Below are positions 1 to 54,510 of a stretch of DNA of 64,000 nucleotides, one piece after another. Source of the DNA: an uncultured Candidatus Saccharibacteria bacterium (GTDB taxonomy: Bacteria; Patescibacteriota; Minisyncoccia; Phycocordibacterales; JACOZG01); assembly GCA_964648765.1 (NCBI GenBank), contig CAZYLF010000003.1, positions 41,676 through 105,675 on the forward strand, read 5' to 3'. The position numbers and the translations under genes are program-made. The number at the start of each line of letters is the position of its first letter. The stretch's first letter is position 1. The notes below the pieces were generated by a model. That model ran no database searches. It was given only the letters and a program-made list of their open reading frames with translations, and was not told the origin of the DNA.

Positions 1-2469
1 CACTTGGAATGGTACTACTGAATCTAACAGCTCGTCATCTTCATCCGTGTCTCCTTGTTTGCTAACCAAAAACCTGGCAATCGAATTTCCACTTTTTGTA
101 CTTCCGACCAATTCAAAATCGTAGCCCGATGCCTGCAATTCATTTATTGCCTTATCTATCTCAACATCAAATTGGATCTGATTCTCAGATTTATCTATAC
201 CGATAATCCGGCCTTTTAGATTGTTATAGATTATTGGCGCAAACCTATCTGTTTCGTTAAAGAGGACGGGATCACCAATCTTGTAAGTTTGTATACCCCA
301 ATGCACAAGGGCATTTTCGTTGCTGCCTTGAAGAAACTTATTCAGATTGTTTATGCCGTACAGGCCGTCGTAATTTAAACAGAGAATTATTTCATCGTCC
401 TCTGGGGACTCAAAAATGGACTCGTTTAAAACGGTGGTATAGCCATTTCTCGTCATGCTTTCAAGAATATTGTCTTCAAGATTTCTAACCCTGTTCCAAA
501 ATTCAATCAGTTCTTTATTAGTAGTCCGATAAGGAACTGTCAGTTCGGATACAGCAGTCTTGGGTACAAAATATCGCGCAACATTAAACCAGTTTCCGAA
601 TATTATTGATTCTATCTGGAATACGTCACCAACTAATATTAAGGATTTGAACTTTGCCTTGTTCAAAACACCAATCATGTCTGTATTACTAACTGTGCTG
701 CACTCATCAATAATAAGAAGATCAAACTCTGTTTCAGTATTTCGATGAGACAGGAACTTAGCAATCGTTTGAAACGTGCTATTGGGTGCGTTTACCTTTC
801 TCTTCAAGTTATCGATAGCAGGATTGGTATTGGCTAAGTAAAGTTTTTGATTATCATTGAAAAAGTTTGATATGTGCTTTATCAATGTTGATTTTCCTGT
901 ACCCGCCGCACCATATATTAATGCCACCTCGGAATCTGCAAACATCTGTCTTAGGATTCTCTCCTTATCTTCGCAGTCAATTTGATATGCAGATAACTTC
1001 AGCCACGAGTCTACGGAATTCGAGTAGTTGTTTATACCATTCGATGATAACTCTTTAAGTTTTTTAATGATGTCTAAAGTATCTTTTTCATACCCGTTTA
1101 TATAAATAAAATCTTTGAAGGTTTCTAGCTTGCGATGTATGTGCTTGTAGTAGAGCTTTCTGTTGTAGGTGGCGATCAGATTTTCAGCCTCTTCCTTTGT
1201 CTTGGATAAGCCTTCTATAGGTGTATATAGTTTTCCCTTACTCTCTGTGTTGTCCTTTATCAATCTCGCAAAAAGTTCATGTTCTCGATCTGCCGCACTA
1301 ATACACTCAAAAACATCTGAGATCTTGGGATTGTGCCCTTTCAGTGAGGAGTTGAAAGGCATCGTATCGAATGGCTTACATCCAAGATTAAGATTCAAAT
1401 CTTCTCGAAGCTTGTATCCGCCATAATAGCTGCGCTGCAGCTTTATAATTCTATTATTTAAAGAGCGCAGTAAATATCTAACTACGTTAGTGCCAACTTC
1501 ATTACCCCTGACCAAGGCTTTGGCTTTCTCTAAAACATTCAAAAAATGTACTACCTGTACACCCTGAGCAATACGATTTTTTGCGCCATCATAGTAATCA
1601 TCTGGGAGATCAATAATTTCGACGAGACTTAGGCTAGTCTCTGTCAAAAAACTCATCAAATTTTTGTATTCCGCACTCTTTGACTGAACATCTATATTCT
1701 CGCCCAAAATGCGAGCAAAGTTGTTAAGTTCGCAGGGTCGAATGGAAACCTCCCATTTATCAATGATGTGAATAGGCATCTTTTTGCCCAAAACCTCAAT
1801 ATCGTCGTGTATTACAGAAAGCTTAACCGCGTAATTATCGGAAATATCTAGCTTGGTAAAAGCGATGACTCTATCAAACTTACTGATTTGTGCACTCGCT
1901 ATTGTAAAAGTGACTTCGTAGTATATTTCGTGCTTAACAAAAAGTGGTTTGATTTTTTGGATATAGTACCGATCTCTATAGGGGCTTACCTTTCTTGCTT
2001 TTGTTGGGTGTTCGATTCTCTCAACTATCTTTTCGTAGTATTCCTGCAAGGCAAGGTCAGTGTTTATCGGGAACTTATCGATATTACTTAAAACGTCTAA
2101 GCCATAGGTATTCTTGAGACGAGATTTAATCCTGATTAAATACTCATAATATTTCAACATTAGACGTTCCGAGTTTTCTTCGCTCTGTGTGTAGTGCGAC
2201 GCGACACCCTGCAAAAAATTATGAAACCTTCTCAGATATCCCAAAGACCCTTTTGGCTGCAATCTATTTGGAGCGTTTATTAAACCATCAGACGTAATCT
2301 CTATATCTTGTCCGTTAGCTTCTTCTTTTAAGGCAATATGCTCGACGAAGTTCCTAAGCTGAGACAGGATATTCTGCGACAAAAGACCTCTTTCTGAGGC
2401 GTGGAATTTATCGATATTTTTACAGATTGCTGTATCGATAGTTAGTATTTCGCTATCCAGTCTATTCAT
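1..2469 (-). CDS. Superfamily-1B (RecD/Pif1-like) helicase with ~500-aa N-terminal domain of unknown function; C-terminus runs off window start (partial)
   Basis: Continuous minus-strand frame from ATG at 2467-2469 down to position 1. It is absent from the ORF track because it has no stop in the window. My translation shows Walker A YGAAGTGKST, Walker B LLIIDECS, motif III LILVGDVFQIESI (GDxxQ) and a RecD-type C-terminal segment IGDPVLFNETDRF...NLKGRIIGID. A TATAAT box lies ~10 nt upstream of the ATG. Confidence 0.6.
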   Translation of the reverse strand, partial: MNRLDSEILTIDTAICKNIDKFHASERGLLSQNILSQLRNFVEHIALKEEANGQDIEITSDGLINAPNRLQPKGSLGYLRRFHNFLQGVASHYTQSEENSERLMLKYYEYLIRIKSRLKNTYGLDVLSNIDKFPINTDLALQEYYEKIVERIEHPTKARKVSPYRDRYYIQKIKPLFVKHEIYYEVTFTIASAQISKFDRVIAFTKLDISDNYAVKLSVIHDDIEVLGKKMPIHIIDKWEVSIRPCELNNFARILGENIDVQSKSAEYKNLMSFLTETSLSLVEIIDLPDDYYDGAKNRIAQGVQVVHFLNVLEKAKALVRGNEVGTNVVRYLLRSLNNRIIKLQRSYYGGYKLREDLNLNLGCKPFDTMPFNSSLKGHNPKISDVFECISAADREHELFARLIKDNTESKGKLYTPIEGLSKTKEEAENLIATYNRKLYYKHIHRKLETFKDFIYINGYEKDTLDIIKKLKELSSNGINNYSNSVDSWLKLSAYQIDCEDKERILRQMFADSEVALIYGAAGTGKSTLIKHISNFFNDNQKLYLANTNPAIDNLKRKVNAPNSTFQTIAKFLSHRNTETEFDLLIIDECSTVSNTDMIGVLNKAKFKSLILVGDVFQIESIIFGNWFNVARYFVPKTAVSELTVPYRTTNKELIEFWNRVRNLEDNILESMTRNGYTTVLNESIFESPEDDEIILCLNYDGLYGINNLNKFLQGSNENALVHWGIQTYKIGDPVLFNETDRFAPIIYNNLKGRIIGIDKSENQIQFDVEIDKAINELQASGYDFELVGSTKSGNSIARFLVSKQGDTDEDDELLDSVVPFQV

Positions 2470-6413: not shown

Positions 6414-6449
6414 TTAAAAAAACAGCAGGAACGTAGTGGTTCCTGCTGT
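6414..6449 (-). terminator. Rho-independent terminator after Ubl-E1-JAB-E2 operon
   Basis: Hairpin CAGCAGGAAC-gtagtg-GTTCCTGCTG followed by a T-run on the minus strand. Confidence 0.55.
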
Positions 6450-6475: not shown

Positions 6476-6757
6476 CTAATTCCCCCGAATCTTGGCAATA
6501 GCAAGAATTGTGTCACCAGACTCAACAAAGTCATCTAGACTGGCCTCTTGCCCATTACGCTGAAGTTCACATTTGTCGATATTCTTAATTCCGACTTTTG
6601 TGAAAAGTTCACGAATGCTGATCTTTTTTGTTATCGGAACCTCCTTGATCTCTCCAGGAATTTTTCCGATACTAACAATTGCATCTTTCTGAATAATGCG
6701 CACATCAGGCAAACTTTCAACCGGCTCTTCCATAAATTCCTTTATCCTATTGCTCAT
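6476..6757 (-). CDS. ThiS/MoaD-like beta-grasp ubiquitin-like protein, C-terminus ...SGDTILAIAKIRGN (Gly followed by one Asn)
   Basis: 93 aa. The C-terminal region resembles the MoaD/ThiS ending dGDEvaiiPPVsGG. AAGGAG RBS 7 nt upstream of the ATG. It is the last gene of the E2-JAB-E1 operon. Confidence 0.5.
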   Translation of the reverse strand: MSNRIKEFMEEPVESLPDVRIIQKDAIVSIGKIPGEIKEVPITKKISIRELFTKVGIKNIDKCELQRNGQEASLDDFVESGDTILAIAKIRGN

Positions 6758-6783
6758 TTGATTCTCCTTTCAGAATCTGAGGT

Positions 6784-7467
6784 TCAGTAACTTTTACTAA
6801 GAACCATCAAGGGTGACAAAGAAACAATCGCCTCATTTGCAAACTTTTTGTTGTTCACAAAGTTGATCATTGTAAACACTGCCATACCAGCCAAAGTGGC
6901 TACGGTTGGTGCAATTGCCCTTCTCGTACAGGCACTTTCTTCCGCTTCGGCATCAGAATACAGGGTTTTTTCATAAGCTGCAATCTGTTGCGGCATCGCT
7001 GGCTTGATAGCGTAGATTCTCCCCCCTTCAGCTTCCATTCGTGTCTCAATCATCAGGTCAACTTTTAGTTGCAAGCGAATTGAGGATTCCCAAATTGTCT
7101 TCCTACTTTCCATTGTGTCGGTAAGTACGAAAACAATTCCCTTAAGCGATCCCTTGGTAAACTTCTTAGAGACCGTTTTGATCTTGATGCCAGTGCCGGC
7201 TTCAACTGCTTCGGCCAAGGCTTCGACTTTCTTTTTTCCGACATCTCCAAGGCCAAAGACCTGATTTGGCAGATTATGATTCTCTACCTCATCAAAGTCA
7301 TAGACTGTGATGTCTTTACACCCCATCTTGGCCAAGAGCCAAACGATGTAGGAGCCGGTTGCACCGACGCCGATCACCGTGATTGGTTTCTTGAAGTTTG
7401 ACGGAGAAAAGATGTCGAGCTGGCGCCAATAGTCAGGTTCACTTTTTACGGTTTTTCCGCGCGGCAT
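6784..7467 (-). CDS. E1-like ThiF/MoeB-family adenylyltransferase
   Basis: Rossmann motif ITVIGVGATGSYIVWLLAKMG, followed by DFDEVENHNL. A C-terminal ESACTRRAIAPTV segment matches the E1 catalytic-Cys region. Start set at the ATG with an AGGGAGG RBS (7467); the ORF track start at 7548 is further upstream. Confidence 0.7.
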   Translation of the reverse strand: MPRGKTVKSEPDYWRQLDIFSPSNFKKPITVIGVGATGSYIVWLLAKMGCKDITVYDFDEVENHNLPNQVFGLGDVGKKKVEALAEAVEAGTGIKIKTVSKKFTKGSLKGIVFVLTDTMESRKTIWESSIRLQLKVDLMIETRMEAEGGRIYAIKPAMPQQIAAYEKTLYSDAEAEESACTRRAIAPTVATLAGMAVFTMINFVNNKKFANEAIVSLSPLMVLSKSY

Positions 7468-8107
7468 TTTTTCCTCCCTTCTCATAGAATGAGCCAGCTT
7501 TGACCTTGTCCTTAATCTCTTTGGCAATCGCTTTGCGCCGTTTGTCATCTCCGAGATGCATTTGCCAAGGACAATCGGTGATTTTTACATTTTTTGTGTA
7601 ATCAAAAAAATCGAAAACACATTTTCCTTCTCGAGTAAAAATACCACGGATAAAAAATGGATTGTGAGCAAATAGCTCCATCTGGTCATCATCCTGACCT
7701 GAAGGTTCAGTCATGTCCCCAGGATGCAAATGTCCCCAGAAAAGTAGGGAATTAAGAATTTTTTTGTTTGCTGTATCCCTTTGCAACATATCAGTGTAGA
7801 ACTTGCCAATACTTGCTTGATCAAACTCACAATGAGTGCCACTCACTTGCTGATCAAAAAGGAATACCTTTTCGATGAGATAATGGCCGTCATCCAATTT
7901 ATTAACCGTACCGAGCCAACCCACCTCATCGTTACCTGCGGCCTCCATGATGTAGTGCGTATCGGTATACGCCTCAAGTGACAAGAGAATGGTTGGGGTT
8001 ACGACTTCGACCATCGATTGGATTTGCGGTTCTGCCTCGTGAGGGAACAACGGTTTGACTGGTTCCTCCTCAAGTAACATTCCATGGTTTTGACTTGATG
8101 ACCTCAT
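7439..8107 (-). CDS. JAB/MPN (JAMM) metallo-isopeptidase
   Basis: Complete JAMM motif: upstream Glu (HCEFDQ) followed by HLHPGDMTEPSGQD (HxHx7Sx2D). The start ATG overlaps the E2 gene stop (ATGA). Confidence 0.75.
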   Translation of the reverse strand: MRSSSQNHGMLLEEEPVKPLFPHEAEPQIQSMVEVVTPTILLSLEAYTDTHYIMEAAGNDEVGWLGTVNKLDDGHYLIEKVFLFDQQVSGTHCEFDQASIGKFYTDMLQRDTANKKILNSLLFWGHLHPGDMTEPSGQDDDQMELFAHNPFFIRGIFTREGKCVFDFFDYTKNVKITDCPWQMHLGDDKRRKAIAKEIKDKVKAGSFYEKGGKNAARKNRKK

Positions 8108-9018
8108 TCTTTTTTCTCCTTTCGTTTAGAGATTTTCTTTTCAGAAACTGGCCAATTACTAATTTCTGAATATGGTCCATAGAAACTCGATTTCTCATAA
8201 CTCTTAAGGTACTGAATGCAGACCATTATTACAGCGGGGTACTTGTGCTCAGCAATCATATGGGGAATAACTTCCTGAATATTACCGAGACAAGGTTTAC
8301 CTTCATGATTAACGTGTGGATGGTGATTTCTGCTCCCATATCCATCACTAGCGGAATTTGTTCGATTTATCATCCTCACCCCACCCCGTTCGCCAAGTGT
8401 ATTGATTGTGATCTTGAATTTTCCAATTTCATAATCAACTCGATTGTATCTAATAGTTATCGGTCCTGTGTAGACCAAAATGTTCTTTCCACTAACCTCA
8501 ATCCTCTCAATATCGGGATGCTTAAGTAGACCATTAAATTCATCACCGAATCTTGCGAGCGCGGCATCATCAGTGCCAGAAACAGCTGTAAGCTGTTGCT
8601 GTTTTTCTTCCATTTTACGCAAAAGAGTAACAAGTTGTTCTTGGGATTTTTCAACGGCCGACCGCAGTCTTGATGTCTCGTGCTTGAGAGTACGTAAACG
8701 CTCAGCCTTGCGGTTGTAGCCGCAAAGTTCCATGTATTTGCGCTTCAAGGTGTCATTAGGACTTTTCTTGGACTTCCGTTTGACATCCACATTGCCATTA
8801 TTACTGAATCTGGCCAAATATACGCCCCGGTAGTTCGTCTTAACTTTTGAAATTTGCCGCTCGGTAACACCAAGAATGCCGCAAACTTCACCAAGATCTT
8901 CCATTGGGATCGCCTTGCACACCGTCCCATTAATACTAAGACGGGTGGTTTTGATCCCAGCTAGACTAGCGCCATTTAGACTTTTTTCCGAAAACGCAAT
9001 GAGTGTTTTAGCCTCCAT
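8104..9018 (-). CDS. E2-like (UBC-fold) conjugating enzyme with N-terminal HTH-like domain and central coiled coil
   Basis: The C-terminal half has a beta-rich segment followed by HHPHVNHEGKPCLGNI, which resembles the E2 HPN-x(5-8)-Cys active-site signature. The N-terminus has an HTH-like LGEVCGILGVTERQISK. The middle (RKAERLRTLKHETSRLRSAVEKSQEQL) is a heptad-rich coiled coil. Confidence 0.5.
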   Translation of the reverse strand: MEAKTLIAFSEKSLNGASLAGIKTTRLSINGTVCKAIPMEDLGEVCGILGVTERQISKVKTNYRGVYLARFSNNGNVDVKRKSKKSPNDTLKRKYMELCGYNRKAERLRTLKHETSRLRSAVEKSQEQLVTLLRKMEEKQQQLTAVSGTDDAALARFGDEFNGLLKHPDIERIEVSGKNILVYTGPITIRYNRVDYEIGKFKITINTLGERGGVRMINRTNSASDGYGSRNHHPHVNHEGKPCLGNIQEVIPHMIAEHKYPAVIMVCIQYLKSYEKSSFYGPYSEISNWPVSEKKISKRKEKKE

Positions 9019-9147
9019 TTTACCATCCTTCTCCTTTCTTTTTTGAATTATTGATTGTCAAAAACCTTTAATTTAGAGCTTTTTAGGCCCCAAACCTCTG
9101 TTATGATCCAAGCATAAAAAATTAAATTTGTAAAGAGAGTTTGGAAT

Positions 9148-9801
9148 TCATGATTTTATTATATCAGCCTCAGTTAGTTCAAGTTTAAGTTCTTTAAGAA
9201 AAGTATGTAAGAATTTGGTTCTGCGTTTGGCAATCTTTTTGGCAAGTTTTGTATGCATACGCTTTTCTGCAACCAAAAGTCGTTTGTAAAACAAAGCCAC
9301 GCCAGATGCGGAATTTAATTCCGCGGCCTCATTAAGCGGATTGTCAGGATTGTAAAAACCTCTGTTCATCTGACCGCCAGAAGAAAAGGTTCTGATAATT
9401 GAAATGGCACCGGTGGACTCCAACAAATCAGCATCCTGGAGAACTTTGGACTCCAAAAGTTCTGGCATTATCGCTTTTGAAAATGAGCATTGTTTAATGC
9501 AAGTTACTACATCTTTAATTTTATGCTTTGGGTATTCGCTAATCCCCTCCAAAATTTGTGTGGCCACATCAGCACTCTCATCAGTTTCGTTTTTACTTTG
9601 TGGTGAATCTTTACGGTAAACTACCGTGTCGTGGAAGAGCGCAGCTGGGATAACCACCTCAAGATCCGCACCCACACTCTCACCGATTTTAATCGCCATA
9701 TTTAACACTCGACTTATATGTTCAAAATCGTGAGACGGATCTTCCTTGGTCTGCCTCTCTTTAGCAATCAGTTTTAATTTATCAAAAACTTTTGGGTTCA
9801 T
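9148..9801 (-). CDS. HD-domain metal-dependent phosphohydrolase
   Basis: H...HD signature (HDFEHISRVL ... ALFHDTV) and a later D residue; 217 aa. Confidence 0.65.
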   Translation of the reverse strand: MNPKVFDKLKLIAKERQTKEDPSHDFEHISRVLNMAIKIGESVGADLEVVIPAALFHDTVVYRKDSPQSKNETDESADVATQILEGISEYPKHKIKDVVTCIKQCSFSKAIMPELLESKVLQDADLLESTGAISIIRTFSSGGQMNRGFYNPDNPLNEAAELNSASGVALFYKRLLVAEKRMHTKLAKKIAKRRTKFLHTFLKELKLELTEADIIKS

Positions 9802-10317: not shown

Positions 10318-10320
10318 TTA

Positions 10321-10391
10321 CTGCCGGCCAGGGACTCGAACCCCAATACCCGCCTCCAAAGGGCGGTGTCCTACCATTAGACGAGCCGGCA
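10321..10391 (-). tRNA. tRNA-Gln (anticodon UUG)
   Basis: Hand-folded cloverleaf with 7-bp acceptor (U1:A72), D-stem GTCT/GGAC and anticodon stem CCGCC/GGCGG. Loop CTTTGGA gives anticodon TTG. T-loop is TTCGAGT and the discriminator is G73. U1:A72 plus G73 are classical Gln identity elements. CCA is not encoded. Confidence 0.8.
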
Positions 10392-10476
10392 AAGACCCTA
10401 ATAATCTACCAATCTATGAGCCGATTGTACAGAGATTGAAATGGCGAGAGTGAAGATGATAGAGTAGAACGATATA

Positions 10477-42103: not shown

Positions 42104-43906
42104 CTATTGTAAACAGGCTTTGATTCTCCTCACTCCGGCAGCGACAGCCTCCTCCTTCATAATTTTTATGCCTCCAATCTCGCTGGTTTCGCTCACGTGC
42201 GGTCCACCACAGAACTCCTTGCTGAAGCTATCAATTAAATATACAGAAACAGTGTCGCCATATTTAGCGCCGAATTCCATCTCCGCGCCCAACTGCTCGG
42301 CTTCAGCCTTTGGCATCTCACAACGTTCAACTTTAAGATTTTCTTTGATCTTTTCATTCACAATTTTCTCCACCTCAGCTAATTCTTCAGGAGTTAACTT
42401 TCTAGCGAAAGAAAAATCGATTCTCAAACGCTCACTCGTAATATTAGAACCACGCTGTTTAACTTCTTTACCTAAAACTTGCTGGAGGGCGGCTAAAATT
42501 AAGTGATGCGCTGTGTGAAGTTTAATGGTCTCCGGTGAATGATCGGCCAAACCACCTTTAAACTTTTGCTCCGCACCCGCGCGCGAAAGCACTTGATGTT
42601 CAGTGAGCAACTTTTTAAATTCTTCTTCATCCACAGCTAAATTATTACGCGTGGCTTCTTCAATAATTAATTCCACGGGGAAGCCATGGGTTTGATAGAG
42701 ATCAAAGGCCTCCTTACCCGATATCTTCTCGCGCAAAACTGGATCGCTAGTATTAATATTGTATGAAATAACTTTAGAAAGTTTAGATAGGCCGGCACGT
42801 AACGTTTTCCGGAACTTTTGCTCCTCATTTTCTATCTCGCTTTTCACTTTGTCTTTGCTCGTCAAAACTTCTGGATACACTTCCGCGTACTTGCTGATCA
42901 CTTCATCAATAATTTTAGCAAAGCCATCTGGCGCGAGTTTAATGAGGTCGGCGTAACGCACGGCACGGCGGAGTAAACGGCGGAGCACGTAACCACGATC
43001 AGTGTTGGAAGGTAACACGCCGTCAGCGAGCATCATCACGGAGGTACGCAAGTGGTCCGCCACAATTCTTTTAGCTTTTACCTCTGACGAAGATGAATTA
43101 TCGTCAATCACCTTCATGATTCCCGCAAAAAGATCGGTGGCGAAAACGTTATTAGTTTTCTGCAGCACCATTGCCAAACGTTCCAAACCCGCACCCGTGT
43201 CCACATTTTGTTGGTTCAATTTGCCGATCACTTTGCCATCTCGCTTTTCATATTCCATGAAAACATCATTCCAAATTTCCACCACCCTCTGTTCATCATC
43301 AGCTTTAAGATATTCCTCTTTTGTTAACCCATTGGTAAGTTCGCCTGTGAGATCGTAAAACATTTCGGTATCCGGTCCACATGGACCGTTTGCTCCAGCA
43401 CTCCACCAATTTTTACTCACACCTAAAAAGTAAATCCTCTCCCCTTCAATTTTATTTTTCTCAAAAATTTCTTTCCAGATTGCCGCCGACTCTTCATCAC
43501 GCGGCGCATTTTCATCACCTTCAAAACAGGTTACATATAGTCGATTTGGATCCAAACCAAAACCAATTTTTTTATTTGTGAGCAAATCATAACTCCATTC
43601 AATCGCCTCACGCTTCCAGTAACTTCCGAGCGACCAATTACCAAGCATTTCAAAAAATGTATCGTGGGTGTTATCGCCCACCTCCTCAATGTCTTGCGTG
43701 CGCACGCACTTTTGCACGTTTACTAAACGAGCTCCCGCCGGATGCTTTTCGCCCAGCAAATAAGGCACCAGCGGTTGCATGCCGGCGGTAGTAAAGAGAA
43801 CCGAAGCATCGCCGCCAATAGGCACTAGAGGCGCAGAAGGAATAACCGCATGCTCGCGCACCTTAAAAAATTCAATAAACCGCCGCCTAATTTCCTCAGA
43901 TTTCAT
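42104..43906 (-). CDS. alaS: Alanine--tRNA ligase, short form lacking C-Ala/DHHA1 domain
   Basis: AlaRS catalytic N-terminus FTTAGMQPLVPYLLG...WSLGSYW. Editing-domain HxxxH (HTAHHLILAAL) and CxxxH (CGGPHVSETSEIG). 600 aa only. Confidence 0.85.
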   Translation of the reverse strand: MKSEEIRRRFIEFFKVREHAVIPSAPLVPIGGDASVLFTTAGMQPLVPYLLGEKHPAGARLVNVQKCVRTQDIEEVGDNTHDTFFEMLGNWSLGSYWKREAIEWSYDLLTNKKIGFGLDPNRLYVTCFEGDENAPRDEESAAIWKEIFEKNKIEGERIYFLGVSKNWWSAGANGPCGPDTEMFYDLTGELTNGLTKEEYLKADDEQRVVEIWNDVFMEYEKRDGKVIGKLNQQNVDTGAGLERLAMVLQKTNNVFATDLFAGIMKVIDDNSSSSEVKAKRIVADHLRTSVMMLADGVLPSNTDRGYVLRRLLRRAVRYADLIKLAPDGFAKIIDEVISKYAEVYPEVLTSKDKVKSEIENEEQKFRKTLRAGLSKLSKVISYNINTSDPVLREKISGKEAFDLYQTHGFPVELIIEEATRNNLAVDEEEFKKLLTEHQVLSRAGAEQKFKGGLADHSPETIKLHTAHHLILAALQQVLGKEVKQRGSNITSERLRIDFSFARKLTPEELAEVEKIVNEKIKENLKVERCEMPKAEAEQLGAEMEFGAKYGDTVSVYLIDSFSKEFCGGPHVSETSEIGGIKIMKEEAVAAGVRRIKACLQ

Positions 43907-45657: not shown

Positions 45658-47235
45658 CTAAGCAATCACCCCACCACCCAAACAAACATCATTATCATAC
45701 AAAACGCATGACTGGCCCGGAGCAACCAAAGGTGATTCTATAAGAAAAGTTACAGTTGAGCCATCAAGCGTGCACGGATAAAGTTCACCATGATAGCGAA
45801 TTTGGACCATGAGCTTTTTGTTTTCTGTCGGCGCTTCACCGGTCCAATTTATATTTATTAACTTAATTTGCTTGGCGGGTTTGGTTAAATTAATTTTTTC
45901 AGAAACGGTCAAAGTATTTTTATCTACATCTTTGGCGACAATGTAATAAGGTTTATCATCCGGAGTTTTGGCGGTGATAGTAAAACCATGGCGCTCGCCG
46001 AGCGTGTAAAACATCGCGCCGTCGTGCGCGCCAATCTTCTCACCCTTTTCATTTATCACATCACCCGGAACTTCATTAATAAATTCTTTTAAGAAATCTT
46101 TAAAATCAATTTTACCTACGAAGCAAAGCCCTTGGCTATCCTTCTTCTCTGCTGTTGGCAAATTAAATTTTTTCGCCAACTTTCTCACCTCACTTTTCTC
46201 GTATCCACCGATAGGGAAAAGAGTGTGAGTAAGAATTTCTGGGGTCAGAGTCCAGAGAAAATATGTTTGATCTTTGGCCGAGTCTTTTGAGATTCTTAAT
46301 TTAGCTAAATTCAGCCCCTCCCCCTGCCCCCTCCCCAAAAGGGAGGGGGTTTGGATCCCCCCCCTCTCCTTTGGAGGGGGTTGGGGTGAGGCCTCCTCAA
46401 GAGCTTCTTTAATTTTCATTAATACGGTGTCGATATCACTCAAAACCTCTTCATTTTTAAACCTAATTATTTTAAAACCTAAAACTTCTAATCGATTCGT
46501 TCTTTCTTGATCTCTCTCGATTTGATAATCATGAACATCGCCGTCAATTTCAATTATTAAAGATTTTTCAAGGCAAACAAAATCAACAATAAACTTGTCG
46601 ATGATATGCTGGCGACGAAAGTGAAAACCATTTGAATCTTTCCTTAATTTCTCCCAAATTTTCTTTTCTGCCAAAGTTGGCTTCCTGCGCATTTCAAGAG
46701 CCTGCTCTTGTAAAACTCTGTAAAATTTTTTATCTGCGGTTCTAAAACCTAATTCAGCCCCTCCCCCTGCCCCCTCCCCAAAAGGGAGGGGGTTTGAATT
46801 CCCTCCCTCTCCTTTGGAGAGGGTTGGGGTGAGGCCGATCTGCGCATAATGCCCCGTCGCCACAAAATCCGCCCCATGCTCCATCGCCCACTTGTAAAAC
46901 GCGCCAAATTTAATTTCGCGATTACACATCACATCGGGGTTCGGCGTGCGGCCGAGTTTGTATTCGTTCACCAGATAATCCACCACGCTTTGCTTGTACT
47001 CCTTTTCCAGATCGAGTGTGATGAGCGGAATCTCAAGCTCGGCCGCCACACGCATGGCATCTCGCCGGTCTTCACGCCAGGTGCAGGCGCTAGCAAACTT
47101 CTCCCCACTCGGCTGCCAAACTTTAATAAACACACCCACGACTTCACAGCCTTGCTCTTTAAGCAAAGCCGCCGAAACCGAGGAATCCACTCCCCCGCTC
47201 ATCCCTACAAAAACCTTTTTCTTGACGCCTTTCAT
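45658..47235 (-). CDS. mnmA: tRNA-specific 2-thiouridylase MnmA carrying a ~187-aa in-frame insertion (DUF559 endonuclease-like domain)
   Basis: PP-loop VFVGMSGGVDSSV at the N-terminus. ...ATGHYAQIG and KDQTYFLW...CFVGK flank a 187-aa insert between residues that are ~20 aa apart in canonical MnmA. 525 aa versus a typical ~360. Confidence 0.8.
   Translation of the reverse strand: MKGVKKKVFVGMSGGVDSSVSAALLKEQGCEVVGVFIKVWQPSGEKFASACTWREDRRDAMRVAAELEIPLITLDLEKEYKQSVVDYLVNEYKLGRTPNPDVMCNREIKFGAFYKWAMEHGADFVATGHYAQIGLTPTLSKGEGGNSNPLPFGEGAGGGAELGFRTADKKFYRVLQEQALEMRRKPTLAEKKIWEKLRKDSNGFHFRRQHIIDKFIVDFVCLEKSLIIEIDGDVHDYQIERDQERTNRLEVLGFKIIRFKNEEVLSDIDTVLMKIKEALEEASPQPPPKERGGIQTPSLLGRGQGEGLNLAKLRISKDSAKDQTYFLWTLTPEILTHTLFPIGGYEKSEVRKLAKKFNLPTAEKKDSQGLCFVGKIDFKDFLKEFINEVPGDVINEKGEKIGAHDGAMFYTLGERHGFTITAKTPDDKPYYIVAKDVDKNTLTVSEKINLTKPAKQIKLININWTGEAPTENKKLMVQIRYHGELYPCTLDGSTVTFLIESPLVAPGQSCVLYDNDVCLGGGVIA
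46308..46393. repeat. 86-bp direct repeat, copy A (G/C-tract rich, internally palindromic)
   Basis: AATTCAGCCCCTCCCCCTGCCCCCTCCCCAAAAGGGAGGGGGTTTGGATCCCCCCCCTCTCCTTTGGAGGGGGTTGGGGTGAGGCC. Differs from copy B at ~5 positions. Confidence 0.8.
46751..46836. repeat. 86-bp direct repeat, copy B
   Basis: AATTCAGCCCCTCCCCCTGCCCCCTCCCCAAAAGGGAGGGGGTTTGAATTCCCTCCCTCTCCTTTGGAGAGGGTTGGGGTGAGGCC. Contains the perfect hairpin CCCTCTCC-TTT-GGAGAGGG. Confidence 0.8.
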
Positions 47236-52257: not shown

Positions 52258-54510
52258 CTAATTGTCAAACACAAAGTTGATAAGTCGGTTGGGTATAAAG
52301 ATTGTTTTTTTGATTGCTTTGCCGGCAAGCCACTTGCTTGCGACCTCTCGCTTTTGAGCTAAATCAGAAACTTCATTTTGAGTTAAAGTTGGAGAAACTA
52401 GAATTTCATCACGAACTTTGCCGTTAATTTGAATGATTATTTTCACCTCACCCAACGCCTCTTTTACTGCCTGAGCTTTTGGCCAGGCTTCGAGCGTAAT
52501 TGACGTTTTATGACCTAATTTATTCCACAATTCTTCAGCCAAGTGCGGAGCAAATGGCGAGATAATTTTTAAGAAAGTTTCAAAGGTTTTTAGAGAAACC
52601 GATTCTTCACTTTCCATCGCGTTCGCGAGAATCATCATCTGACTCACGCAAGTGTTGAACTTCATCGCTTCAATATCCTCCCCTACTTTTTTTACACATT
52701 GATTAAGCAGTGAATCTAGATTTTCGTTATTCGCCTTTGCTTTAATTTTAGAACTCACTCTCCAAACTTTTTCTAAAAACCTGCGCGTGCCCACCAAACC
52801 ATCTTCGTTCCAAGACGCGGTTTGCTCAAATGGACCAATAAACATTTCATACAGGCGGAGAGCGTCCGCGCCGAAGCGTTCCACCATCGTGTCAGGATTA
52901 ATCACATTGCCGCGAGATTTACTCATCTTCTGACCGTCTGGGGCTAGGATAAATCCGTGCGAAGTACGCTTCTGGTATGGCTCTCTACCTGGCACCAACT
53001 TTTGATCGTATAAAAATTTGTGCCAGAAGCGCGAGTAGAGCAAGTGGAGCGTGGTGTGCTCCATGCCACCGTTGTACCAATCTACAGGTTGCCAGTATTT
53101 TAATTTTTTGAAATCAGCAAAACTCTTTTTATTTTTCGGATCCGCATAGCGCAAATAATACCAAGATGAACCTGCCCAGTTTGGCATCACATCAGTCTCA
53201 CGCCTAGCCCAAGCTTTACACTTCGGGCATTTAACTTTAATCCACTTGTCGGCCTTCGCGAGTGGCGAATCGCCATTTTCCGTTGGTTTAAAGTCCTTAA
53301 CCTTCGGCAACTTTACTGGCAAATCCTTCTCCGGCACCGCTTGCCAGCCTTGACCCGCCTTGGCGTGGTTACAGCTCTCACAGTAAATTAAGGGTATCGG
53401 CTCACCCCAATAACGCTGCCGACTAAAAACCCAATCCCGGAGTTTATAAGTAGTAACTTTTTTTGCTCCAGTTTTAGCAAACACATCTTCAATACTTATT
53501 AAATCAAAATTCTTAATTGGGAGATTATATTTTTCAGCAAATACTTTATCTCGATCATCGGCTGCGGGCACGCCCATGATGGCGCCGGAGCCGACGCCTT
53601 CCATCACATATTCCGCCTCCCAAATTGGGATCTTCTCATTTGTGGCGGGGTTGATGGCATATTCACCCGTAAATTTATCTTGTTTACCTGCTTTCGCAAT
53701 AAATGTGGCACCATAAATAGTTTCAGGTCGAGTGGTGAATATTTGAATAGCTTCGTTAGCTTCAGAAGCTTTTGAAGCTACTCTCCTAAAGCCTATTTCC
53801 CATCCCTCCTTCCGTCCAATCCAATTCCTCTGACTCGTTTTTACGCGCTCGGGGTAATCCACCAAATCGAGATCTTTATCTAAGCGATCAGCATATTTAG
53901 TAATACCGAGCATCCACTGCTCCTTCTCCCGCTCTTCCACAGCACTGCCGCAACGCTCACACTTACCTGGCGCATCCTTATTTTCAGATGCAAGAACTTC
54001 CTCATTTGCCAAACCAATTTTGCACGATGGGCACCAGTTAATCTTCGCCTTCGCTTTATACGCCAAACCTTGTTTAAAAAATTGGAGGAAGATCCACTGC
54101 GTCCATTTATAATAAGCCGGGTCAGTTGTGTTGATCTCGCGTGACCAGTCGAAGGAGGTGCCAAGCAATTTAATTTGTCGACGGAAGTTATCAGAATTTT
54201 TTTTGGTGACAATCGCCGGCTGAATGCCAGTTTTAATTGCATAATTCTCAGTAGGCAAACCGAAAGCATCCCAACCCATGGGGTAAAGTACGTTGTAACC
54301 TTCCATGCGTCGTTTGCGAGCAATAATATCCAAGCCAATATAAGGTCGCGGATGTCCCACATGCAAACCATCACCAGATGGGTAAGGGAATTCTACTAAA
54401 GCATAATACTTCTTTTTCCCACCATCTTTAGCTTGGAAAAGTTTTTTACTTTCCCAATATTTTTGCCACTTCTTCTCAATCTTTTTTGGGTCGTATCCTT
54501 GCTCCTTCAT
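52258..54510 (-). CDS. leuS: Leucine--tRNA ligase
   Basis: HVGHPRPYIGLDIIARKRRMEGYNVLYPMGWDAFGLP (HIGH region), and KMSKS (GQKMSKSRGN). 750 aa. Confidence 0.9.
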   Translation of the reverse strand: MKEQGYDPKKIEKKWQKYWESKKLFQAKDGGKKKYYALVEFPYPSGDGLHVGHPRPYIGLDIIARKRRMEGYNVLYPMGWDAFGLPTENYAIKTGIQPAIVTKKNSDNFRRQIKLLGTSFDWSREINTTDPAYYKWTQWIFLQFFKQGLAYKAKAKINWCPSCKIGLANEEVLASENKDAPGKCERCGSAVEEREKEQWMLGITKYADRLDKDLDLVDYPERVKTSQRNWIGRKEGWEIGFRRVASKASEANEAIQIFTTRPETIYGATFIAKAGKQDKFTGEYAINPATNEKIPIWEAEYVMEGVGSGAIMGVPAADDRDKVFAEKYNLPIKNFDLISIEDVFAKTGAKKVTTYKLRDWVFSRQRYWGEPIPLIYCESCNHAKAGQGWQAVPEKDLPVKLPKVKDFKPTENGDSPLAKADKWIKVKCPKCKAWARRETDVMPNWAGSSWYYLRYADPKNKKSFADFKKLKYWQPVDWYNGGMEHTTLHLLYSRFWHKFLYDQKLVPGREPYQKRTSHGFILAPDGQKMSKSRGNVINPDTMVERFGADALRLYEMFIGPFEQTASWNEDGLVGTRRFLEKVWRVSSKIKAKANNENLDSLLNQCVKKVGEDIEAMKFNTCVSQMMILANAMESEESVSLKTFETFLKIISPFAPHLAEELWNKLGHKTSITLEAWPKAQAVKEALGEVKIIIQINGKVRDEILVSPTLTQNEVSDLAQKREVASKWLAGKAIKKTIFIPNRLINFVFDN

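Follow-up and report, generated by a model that had tools for sequence, protein, structure and literature searches.

Operons for the conjugation of ubiquitin-like proteins (Ubls) are a recently established class in bacteria, comprising the type II cyclic-oligonucleotide-based antiphage signalling system (CBASS), Bil and Bub, and the characterised examples read as host immunity. Archaeal sampylation is not known to involve an E2. Bil consists of four separate proteins that act by thioester chemistry, and its E2 has been proposed as the target selector (PMC11601596; PMC10557695). The Bil E1 has the architecture IAD-AAD-CYS (PMC11601596), and the active site of BilB is a Cys with a downstream His (PMC10557695). 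Bub (the former 6E/DUF6527) forms Ser/Tyr oxyesters, is missing both catalytic cysteines and has a DUF6527 serine protease, BubE; its parts are fused, as Ubl-E2 with JAB-E1 or as E2-E1 (PMC11601596). Cap2 of type II CBASS is an E2-E1 fusion resembling ATG7 and ATG10, and its substrate is the CD-NTase, not a Ubl. In archaea, the Caldiarchaeum subterraneum operon encodes ubiquitin, an E1-like protein, an E2-like protein that uses a cysteine, the RING protein srfp and an Rpn11-like JAMM enzyme (PMC5654768). Here we analyze a four-gene operon at positions 6476–9018 of a 64,000-nucleotide (nt) stretch of contig CAZYLF010000003.1 (GCA_964648765.1; 41,676–105,675 of the forward strand). We refer to this whole stretch as the window, and all coordinates are relative to it.

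The operon is, we believe with reasonable confidence, a self-contained cassette for Ubl conjugation and deconjugation, one copy of a mobile module common to large phages and reduced-genome bacteria. Its four open reading frames (ORFs) lie on the minus strand and encode, in order, an E2-like protein, a JAB protease, an E1 and a Ubl, followed by a terminator; the cassette measures about 2.6 kb and its four products are small. The fold and family of the four proteins, the conservation of their catalytic residues, the tails of the Ubl precursors and the linkage of the genes were all computed.

The E2-like protein (304 amino acids; 8104–9018, minus strand) has an N-terminal alpha/beta domain, a coiled coil and a C-terminal UBC-like domain. 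Searches of Pfam, PADLOC, NCBIfam and PHROGs gave no match beyond coiled-coil noise. The Pfam models UQ_con and Prok-E2_A to E did not match it at E ≤ 1, and ten diverse family members gave no E2-type Pfam match at E ≤ 0.01, only two unrelated sub-threshold hits. When a profile of the C-terminal domain was searched against PDB, the nine best matches were UBE2L3 or UBE2L3-derived constructs (E = 0.2–0.36), and a more diverse profile improved the UBE2L3 match to E = 0.014–0.02. Both profiles place the HPH-x7-C of the E2-like protein on the HPN-x7-C86 of UBE2L3, and hhalign against UBE2D2 gave the same register, with HPH-x7-C on HPN...Cys85. The cysteine taken as catalytic is thus found seven residues past an HPN-type motif, the spacing of the UBC/E2 superfamily. 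An AlphaFold2 (AF2) model of the whole protein has a mean predicted local distance difference test (pLDDT) score of 78, and in it the C-terminal domain is predicted to adopt the UBC alpha/beta fold. The predicted catalytic domain spans residues about 150–292 (8143–8571), and the predicted active-site motif HPH-x7-C-L-G-N, HHPHVNHEGKPCLG, was located by pattern match at 8281–8322, with the codon for Cys243 at 8292–8290.

Conservation points to the same residues. The 18 close homologues share HP(H), G240, C243-L-G-N-I and a C-terminal WP without exception. Among 179 more distant domains (mainly those of listed cluster representatives), the cysteine is kept in 169 and the proline of HPH in 175. 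An alignment of 31 E2 domains, reaching down to 26% identity, has T37, G52, P87, H88 and C96 as its sole invariant positions. The original prediction had proposed an E2 with a catalytic cysteine in a PCLG motif, and the alignment of HPH-x7-C with HPN-x7-C, the predicted fold and the conservation of this cysteine agree with it. The identification is made of several convergent scores, each of which, we stress, is modest, together with a model from a shallow alignment.

The N-terminal extension only partly resembles what had been proposed, a helix-turn-helix followed by a coiled coil. The coiled coil is there: the linker of residues 87–147 (8578–8760) is predicted by AF2 as helices 87–98 and 103–147, and its only Pfam matches are sub-threshold ones to coiled-coil families such as ZapB and TolA_bind_tri. 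Residues 1–71 (8806–9018) are instead predicted by AF2 to form a strand-rich alpha/beta domain with one 11-residue helix, after which comes a helix of about 45 residues; the helix-turn-helix was dropped on this predicted secondary structure alone. A profile search of PDB found no relative of the N-terminal domain, and a fold search of BFVD returned solely weak matches, to uncharacterised phage proteins. The domain is a candidate target- or partner-binding module.

The E1 (227 amino acids; 6784–7467, minus strand) is a minimal adenylation domain of the ThiF/MoeB/UBA5 type. It matches Pfam ThiF (PF00899) at 3.7e-23 (82.3 bits against a cut-off of 28.1), and its GVGATGS motif (7371–7354) fits GxGxxG. 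In 13 diverse homologues, down to 21% identity, R15, G33/G35/G38, D57, D59, N65, K80, D117, R122 and C180 are invariant; the codons for Arg15, Asp117 and Cys180 lie at 7425–7423, 7119–7117 and 6930–6928. The E1 profile found Uba1 and UBA5 as the best matches in PDB (about 6e-16), then PaaA, MccB, ThiF, TcdA and MoeB, and Cap2 at only 6e-9; the nucleotide-binding region also matches the PADLOC models of the Cap2 E1-E2 protein (4.8e-12). In hhalign, which aligned it with MoeB at 97.7% probability, R15 falls on the arginine (presumably the arginine finger) of MoeB YNRQ and D117 on the aspartate of TDN. A MAFFT alignment puts Cys180 in one column with Cys187 of E. coli MoeB and Cys184 of E. coli ThiF. 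The protein has a single adenylation domain and no rhodanese domain, and it scores far under every cut-off of the NCBIfam equivalog models for ThiF and MoeB.

The JAB/JAMM metalloprotease (222 amino acids; 7439–8107, minus strand) has no Pfam match and is recognised by the PADLOC JAB models at 4e-5. Its motif HLHPGDMTEPSGQD fits HxHx7Sx2D (H126-x-H128-x7-S136-x2-D139, at 7732–7691), with Glu61 upstream (codon 7927–7925), and E61, H126, H128, S136 and D139 are all invariant in 13 diverse homologues. In PDB its profile matches Rpn11 (2.2e-8), the Caldiarchaeum Rpn11-like protein (8e-7), CSN5 and PfJAMM1 (4e-5).

The Ubl is encoded as a 93-residue precursor (6476–6757, minus strand) that matches nothing in Pfam (ThiS included), NCBIfam or PADLOC. 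A profile built from 24 homologues matched P. furiosus PF1061 (3.3e-8) and SAMP2 (1.9e-7) in PDB, with MoaD, Haloferax SAMP2 and TtuB weaker, and placed Gly92 on the terminal glycine. The beta-grasp core occupies residues 26–92 (6682–6482). AF2 predicts a beta-beta-alpha-beta-beta core over residues 26–88 (pLDDT 85–90) and a disordered N-terminus, and the best Foldseek matches of the model are Mth1743, TtuB and MoaD (probability 1.00), the modifier chain of a Uba6 complex, SUMO and NEDD8. The C-terminus reads ...KIRG-N, so that Gly92 (codon 6484–6482) is followed by Asn93. Among the matches listed, 68 of 73 family C-termini have G or GG followed by 1–11 extra residues (KIRG-N, KVEGG-TA, KIEGG-N and RPQG-S are examples), so the modifier is, as a rule, synthesised in precursor form. 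The three products downstream of the E2-like gene had been read in the original prediction as an intact JAMM isopeptidase, a minimal ThiF-type E1 with a GxGxxG motif and a catalytic-Cys region, and a ThiS/MoaD-like beta-grasp protein, and the motifs, profiles and predicted fold agree with these descriptions. Of the four, the E1 is seen, as ThiF, by Pfam, NCBIfam, PADLOC and PHROGs taken together, the JAB weakly by PADLOC, and the E2-like protein and the Ubl by none.

An exhaustive search with the C-terminal-domain profile gave 3,328 cluster representatives (clusters at 50% identity) with E ≤ 1e-3, of which 1,423 reach E ≤ 1e-10. The proteins range from 110 to 834 amino acids; the E2-like domain is usually C-terminal and sometimes duplicated, and the N-termini vary widely. 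Loci were found with a DNA pattern for the E2 motif, which was verified on the window, and then labelled by ORF calling and jackhmmer; this retrieved 15 loci from IMG/VR and at least 120 from metagenomes. In most of about 130 loci among the matches listed, the gene order is either E2-JAB-E1(-Ubl), as in the window, or Ubl-E2-JAB-E1. Linkage was counted in the 49 non-redundant loci, again among the matches listed, whose sequence extends 2.5 kb or more past the downstream end of the E2-like gene: a JAB is linked in 41, an E1 in 45 and both in 40, and a Ubl in 32 of the 37 testable. Because the same gene order recurs in most of the about 130 independent loci listed, a chance arrangement is excluded.

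No fifth conserved gene was found in these loci, and neither E3 nor defence genes show consistent linkage. No sulfur-insertion enzyme is among the 25 best Pfam families in 83 flanking ORFs of related loci. These do include families of cellular type (RecA, IF-2, UvrB, aminoacyl-tRNA synthetase) and of phage or mobile type (PD-(D/E)XK nucleases, ThyX, dCMP deaminase, reverse transcriptase, transposase, TrwB). PADLOC found no enrichment of defence genes in the flanking ORFs of related loci. A close-family pattern scan of GTDB species representatives found no relative, and literature searches, with subscription journals outside their coverage, found no description of the family. The module forms a family of its own, which is not recognised as a unit by any of the profile libraries that were searched.

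The commonest extra neighbour, in 6 of the 130 loci among the matches listed, is an AAA+ ATPase (Pfam AAA plus AAA_lid_3; 530–590 amino acids), which could be the unfoldase partner of tagged proteins. At least three distinct viral contigs carry it a few kb or less from the module (locus L007, 3187–4956; L012, 1–947; L019, 479–2077), and in L012 and L019 it adjoins a ParB-HTH-like gene, with an SLT transglycosylase further along. Tandem E2-like paralogues, two or three, occur in L007 (5536–7072), L024, L026, L055, L126 and L104, the last of which has three. Both paralogues of L007 carry HPH...C, the second being without the N-terminal domain, and some cluster representatives have two E2-like domains in one protein. 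One E2-JAB-E1 locus (L085, 4.7 kb retrieved) comes from the 758,505-bp metagenomic contig Ga0209514_10000014, which represents a small, nearly complete bacterial genome or else a phage of exceptional size.

The contigs that carry the IMG/VR loci measure 12–232 kb, and the genes next to these loci match phage families of DnaB-like helicase, primase, endonuclease VII, UvsX-like recombinase, single-stranded-DNA-binding protein, ParB-like and HNH proteins. One viral contig of 178 kb encodes an AAA+ ATPase, two adjacent E2-like paralogues, a JAB, an E1 and a 76-residue Ubl ending in AKIRGN. Its identity to the window is 70% for the E1, 50% for the JAB, 44% for the E2 domain and 49% for the Ubl, and the viral copy is therefore about as near to the window as other cellular copies are. 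Related cellular copies sit at differing sites, one between IF-2/RbfA and D-Ala-D-Ala ligase and another beside an H+-pyrophosphatase.

Among deposited phages, an E1 search returned 80 records. In the crAss001-like Kehishuvirus "tikkala" (OQ198717.1), a ThiF protein matches the E1 profile at 7.7e-42 and is preceded by a JAB-type "metalloprotease" that matches the JAB profile at 1.1e-11 and carries HSHx7SGTD. Ahead of this lies a 428-residue protein with HSHV...PCTG, which hhalign aligns weakly to the E2 domain (E = 0.005, probability 7%). The set appears to be the cassette in diverged form, so that its annotation as "thiamine biosynthesis protein" and "metalloprotease" probably misleads. The four genes (L144, 252–4657: hypotheticals of 226 and 428 residues, the "metalloprotease", and the "thiamine biosynthesis protein", a ThiF with the family Cys) stand in the replication module of the phage; a reading of the 226-residue protein as the Ubl found no support in hhalign (E = 0.62). 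Flavobacterium phage Fpv1 (NC_031914.1) has a ThiF that matches the E1 profile at 4e-48, with a JAB fragment adjoining. The JAB of Fpv1 seems to be split (L145, 1665–3957): gp56 weakly fits the N-terminal part of the JAB profile, gp54 begins at HSHx7SGTD, and an endonuclease gene, gp55, lies between them on the opposite strand. A homing-endonuclease insertion or a mis-annotated start could account for this. In the 229-kb Xanthomonas jumbo phage PhiXhv-16 (PV764603.1), the ThiF homologue (2.9e-41 against the E1 profile) follows an 892-residue protein. This protein, directly upstream (L146, 751–4627), carries HPHMAVPSSQESHGSLCLG and Cys-rich termini; a 140-residue protein ending in ...AKASGG lies just ahead of it, and no JAB was detected near the ThiF homologue.

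From these data a mechanism can be proposed. The JAMM protease would remove Asn93 from the Ubl precursor and expose Gly92, a step that we propose because the family has conserved tails past the glycine and because there is an archaeal precedent: in Caldiarchaeum, the Rpn11-like JAMM enzyme cleaves pro-ubiquitin before E1 can use it (PMC5654768). The E1, minimal and probably homodimeric, would adenylate Gly92 with ATP and then take the Ubl as a thioester on Cys180 of the crossover loop, as the conservation of its residues suggests. The Ubl would next be handed to Cys243 in the HPH-x7-C motif of the UBC-like domain. With no E3 encoded, the E2-like protein itself would pick targets through its variable N-terminal region (here the small alpha/beta domain and the coiled coil) and would move the Ubl to an amine, presumably that of a lysine. 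The JAMM protease may also reverse the conjugates. For maturation, the E1 step and the transfer to the E2 there is a direct precedent in the Caldiarchaeum cascade, which has been reconstituted (PMC5654768); for the cassette, these enzymatic steps are predictions from computation.

Several observations weigh against a conjugation cassette shared with phages. Neither an E3 nor a target or effector was found. The E1 reads NLPNQ in place of the canonical NLxRQ, so that a conserved ATP-contacting arginine is replaced, and it has no CxxC zinc site such as MoeB and ThiF have. About eight loci among the matches listed (L027, L056, L065, L090, L113, L127, L135 and L137) carry E2-E1-Ubl with no detectable JAB, and maturation may therefore not always need a linked JAB. 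The Ubls of such loci still have one residue past the glycine (RPQG-S, RPKG-S, VRG-A), and their maturation must fall to a different protease or to a JAB encoded elsewhere. Some of the IMG/VR contigs may be misclassified cellular fragments, and a tblastn search of 50,697 deposited phage genomes with the E2-like protein gave no match.

As to the role of the cassette, we tentatively suggest, as a proposal with less than even chances, that the main home of the cascade is in large bacteriophage genomes, where an E2 of the classical HPN...Cys type, acting with no E3, would tag host or phage proteins at an early or replication stage for takeover or counter-defence. The cascade would then have been exchanged with reduced-genome hosts, the window copy included, and crAss-like phages may carry a diverged version. 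The phage setting means that antiphage defence is not simply to be assumed. A dedicated host defence like Bil, in which the E2-like protein would single out a structural or replication protein of the infecting phage, so that tagging with the Ubl blocks assembly or infectivity, is nonetheless kept alive as a rival by the Bil precedent and the sporadic chromosomal distribution of the module. The same kinds of parts serve the immune pathways Bil, type II CBASS and probably Bub (PMC11601596; PMC10557695), and Bil likewise works with no E3, its E2 having been proposed to recognise targets directly (PMC11601596). The module's occurrence at differing sites in differing genomes is typical of defence genes, and an arms race would fit with N-termini as variable as those of the E2-like proteins. 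Many family members, however, stand among replication genes on viral contigs, and in cultured crAss-like, Fpv1-like and Xanthomonas jumbo phages the E1 homologues belong to the core region, with a JAB beside the homologue in the first two. Nor do the flanking genes give a defence-island signal in PADLOC, no CapW/BrxR-type or CapH/CapP-type regulator is adjacent, and no PADLOC system model fits the E2-like protein or the Ubl. On this evidence a defence role is rather unlikely, and the antiphage function implied by the original prediction is not supported, given the family's location beside replication genes on viral contigs, its E1 relatives in cultured phages and the lack of defence enrichment.

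Two further alternatives would dispense with the E2 step. In one, the UBC-like domain would serve as a scaffold of the UEV/RWD type with no catalytic activity, and any conjugation would be the work of the E1 alone, as in sampylation (SAMP/UbaA/JAMM). The Ubl and JAB profiles do match SAMP2 and PfJAMM1, components of a pathway not known to need an E2, and Bub shows that bacterial E2-like proteins can leave canonical chemistry (PMC11601596). Yet the Cys and the HPH hardly vary across the more than 3,000 clusters of the family, they are spaced exactly as in active E2s, and inactive UEV and RWD domains have no such cysteine (Iyer et al., 2006), all of which makes a scaffold very improbable. Still harder to credit is a ThiS/MoaD/TtuB-type sulfur-carrier or cofactor pathway, in which the E1 would adenylate the Ubl for thiocarboxylate formation and the 304-residue protein would be an accessory, not an E2. 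In its favour, the Ubl belongs to the ThiS/MoaD/SAMP2/TtuB group, models of ThiF and MoeB match the E1, and deposited phage records label a homologue "thiamine biosynthesis protein", a name that is probably wrong for the E1 homologue. Against this, ThiG, MoaE, CysM, TtuA and rhodanese are not linked in the window and are absent from the 25 best flanking Pfam families; related operons are not tied to CysM, MoaE or ThiG, the linkage that would have marked a sulfur pathway, and the related loci listed have no other conserved neighbour. The E1, moreover, has no rhodanese domain and falls far below the equivalog cut-offs, the Ubl needs C-terminal trimming, and the adjacent genes almost always include one for a UBC-fold protein whose cysteine is invariant.

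Returning to the conjugation cassette, its closest functional relatives are the archaeal Ub/E1/E2/Rpn11 operon minus its RING protein, or archaeal sampylation plus an E2. With the Caldiarchaeum/Asgard operon it shares separate small proteins, a precursor modifier, an Rpn11-like JAMM, an E1-like protein and a cysteine E2; the E2 motif is of the classical HPN-Cys type, and the JAB profile matches the Caldiarchaeum Rpn11-like protein as given above (8e-7). It differs in having no RING/srfp gene (there are four ORFs in the window and no extra conserved gene in the about 130 loci listed), in a modifier that is SAMP2/ThiS-like rather than ubiquitin-like, in the long, variable N-terminal extensions of E2-like proteins that fall below the Pfam UQ_con threshold, and in its hosts, which are bacteria and phages. 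Sampylation (SAMP2/UbaA/JAMM1) is similar in the Ubl, whose best relatives are PF1061 and SAMP2, in the match of the JAB profile to PfJAMM1 and in a minimal MoeB-like E1; it differs in that the module has an almost obligately linked UBC-fold protein with an invariant Cys.

The label "Bil/Bub-like" given by the original prediction could not be kept: the E1 does not have the IAD-AAD-CYS architecture, there is no DUF6527, both cysteines are present, E2 and E1 are not fused, and no CD-NTase is adjacent. Like Bil (BilABCD, types I and II, type II being the former 6c), the module has separate Ubl, E2, JAB and E1 genes, no E3 and predicted thioester chemistry through cysteines. Its E1, unlike that of Bil, is one adenylation domain of 227 residues with the Cys in the crossover loop, its active site is HPH-x7-Cys, and its Ubl is ThiS/SAMP2-like, not ubiquitin- or ISG15-like. 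Bub is set apart by the two catalytic cysteines, which are invariant in the module, and by its fusions, which the module does not have; DUF6527 matched none of the four proteins or flanking ORFs. The likeness to type II CBASS Cap2/Cap3 (the former 6b) lies in the matches of the E1 to Cap2 models (4.8e-12) and of the JAB to PADLOC JAB (4e-5), whereas the E2 and E1 of the module are separate genes with no adjacent CD-NTase or effector gene. We assume that the family 6d of Iyer, Burroughs and Aravind (2006) is the PRTRC cassette of NCBIfam. Family 6d has an E2-like protein lacking the classical His and having a downstream His, a JAB with a JAB-N domain, and a conserved alpha-helical fifth protein (Iyer et al., 2006). 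In the module the HPH at the classical position is invariant; the PRTRC_ThiF model scores its E1 at 33.1 bits against a cut-off of 144.75, and the other three proteins match none of the PRTRC models, which cover ThiF and proteins A, B, C and E. One likeness to 6d is that some viral loci of the family carry a ParB-HTH-like gene. Identity with Bil, Bub, type II CBASS or PRTRC/6d was rejected after defining features of each had been checked and found absent.

The module thus adds to the bacterial Ubl-conjugation operons a further family of separate genes, with more than 3,000 clusters at 50% identity, and an E2 with the classical HPN-type motif and spacing, which bears on the origin of canonical E2s. 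That it is often found in the replication regions of phages points to a possible use of ubiquitin-like tagging by the phages themselves; our literature searches turned up no description of a whole cascade of this type encoded by a phage. The compact cassette suits in vitro reconstitution, and the cultured phages with related genes (crAss001-like, Fpv1-like and PhiXhv-16) are usable as genetic systems.

The layout of the window copy is compact. The stop of the E2-like gene and the start of the JAB gene overlap as ATGA, as read from the sequence. The E1 most likely starts at the ATG at 7467, which has a GGGAGG ribosome-binding site ahead of it, overlaps the JAB gene by 29 nt and was also chosen by an independent gene call on the same contig; the longest possible ORF, from 7548 (254 amino acids), would overlap the JAB gene by 110 nt. 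A 26-nt spacer containing an AAAGGAG site separates the E1 and Ubl genes. A GGAG/AAGGA ribosome-binding site for the first gene can be read directly at 9036–9026, within an upstream region (9026–9182, minus strand) where a consensus scan weakly picked out the sigma-70-like hexamers TTGAAC-18-TAAAAT (9182–9153), a putative promoter. An intrinsic terminator (6415–6449, minus strand), with a stem of 11 pairs (6 G-C) followed by TTTTTTT at 6449–6422, closes the operon. The complete four-gene module that had been proposed, with its ATGA overlap, short JAB-E1 overlap, 26-nt gap and own terminator, is therefore present, the short overlap being the 29 nt that go with the start at 7467.

The surroundings of the operon are those of a bacterial chromosome: the window encodes histidyl-, alanyl- and leucyl-tRNA synthetases (HisRS, AlaRS, LeuRS), DnaK, DnaJ, RpoA, YchF and MnmA. 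The flanking genes are for an HD-domain protein, a cupin, a flavoprotein and hypothetical proteins. In this ordinary context the copy was probably gained horizontally. A block of mosaic composition next to tRNA-Gln had also been pointed out; the tRNA (10320–10392) and an uneven guanine-plus-cytosine (GC) content, from 37% to 55% over the first 10 kb, are indeed there, and the window neighbourhood has no integrase gene, att-like repeat of the tRNA or nearby phage gene. A prophage or island origin, for which the tRNA and the uneven GC content alone spoke, was dropped.

The sole mobile-element-like gene close to the module encodes a superfamily 1 helicase (AAA_30/Viral_helicase1/UvrD_C_2; 1–2469, minus strand) that runs past the start of the window; it has 903 amino acids on the full contig and lies in a stretch of about 38% GC adjoining segments of 51–55% GC. 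Further along, the MnmA tRNA 2-thiouridylase homologue (45658–47235, minus strand) contains a DUF559/Vsr-like endonuclease domain (residues 176–279) between its HUP and PRC-barrel domains. Among features listed together at 42104–43906 and 52258–54510 (minus strand) is an AlaRS of just 600 amino acids that stops at the tRNA_SAD domain; compared with typical AlaRS lengths, its shortness may hint at a reduced genome. A related locus, L001, carries a 593-residue CCA-adding enzyme and a short IF-2, which point in the same direction.

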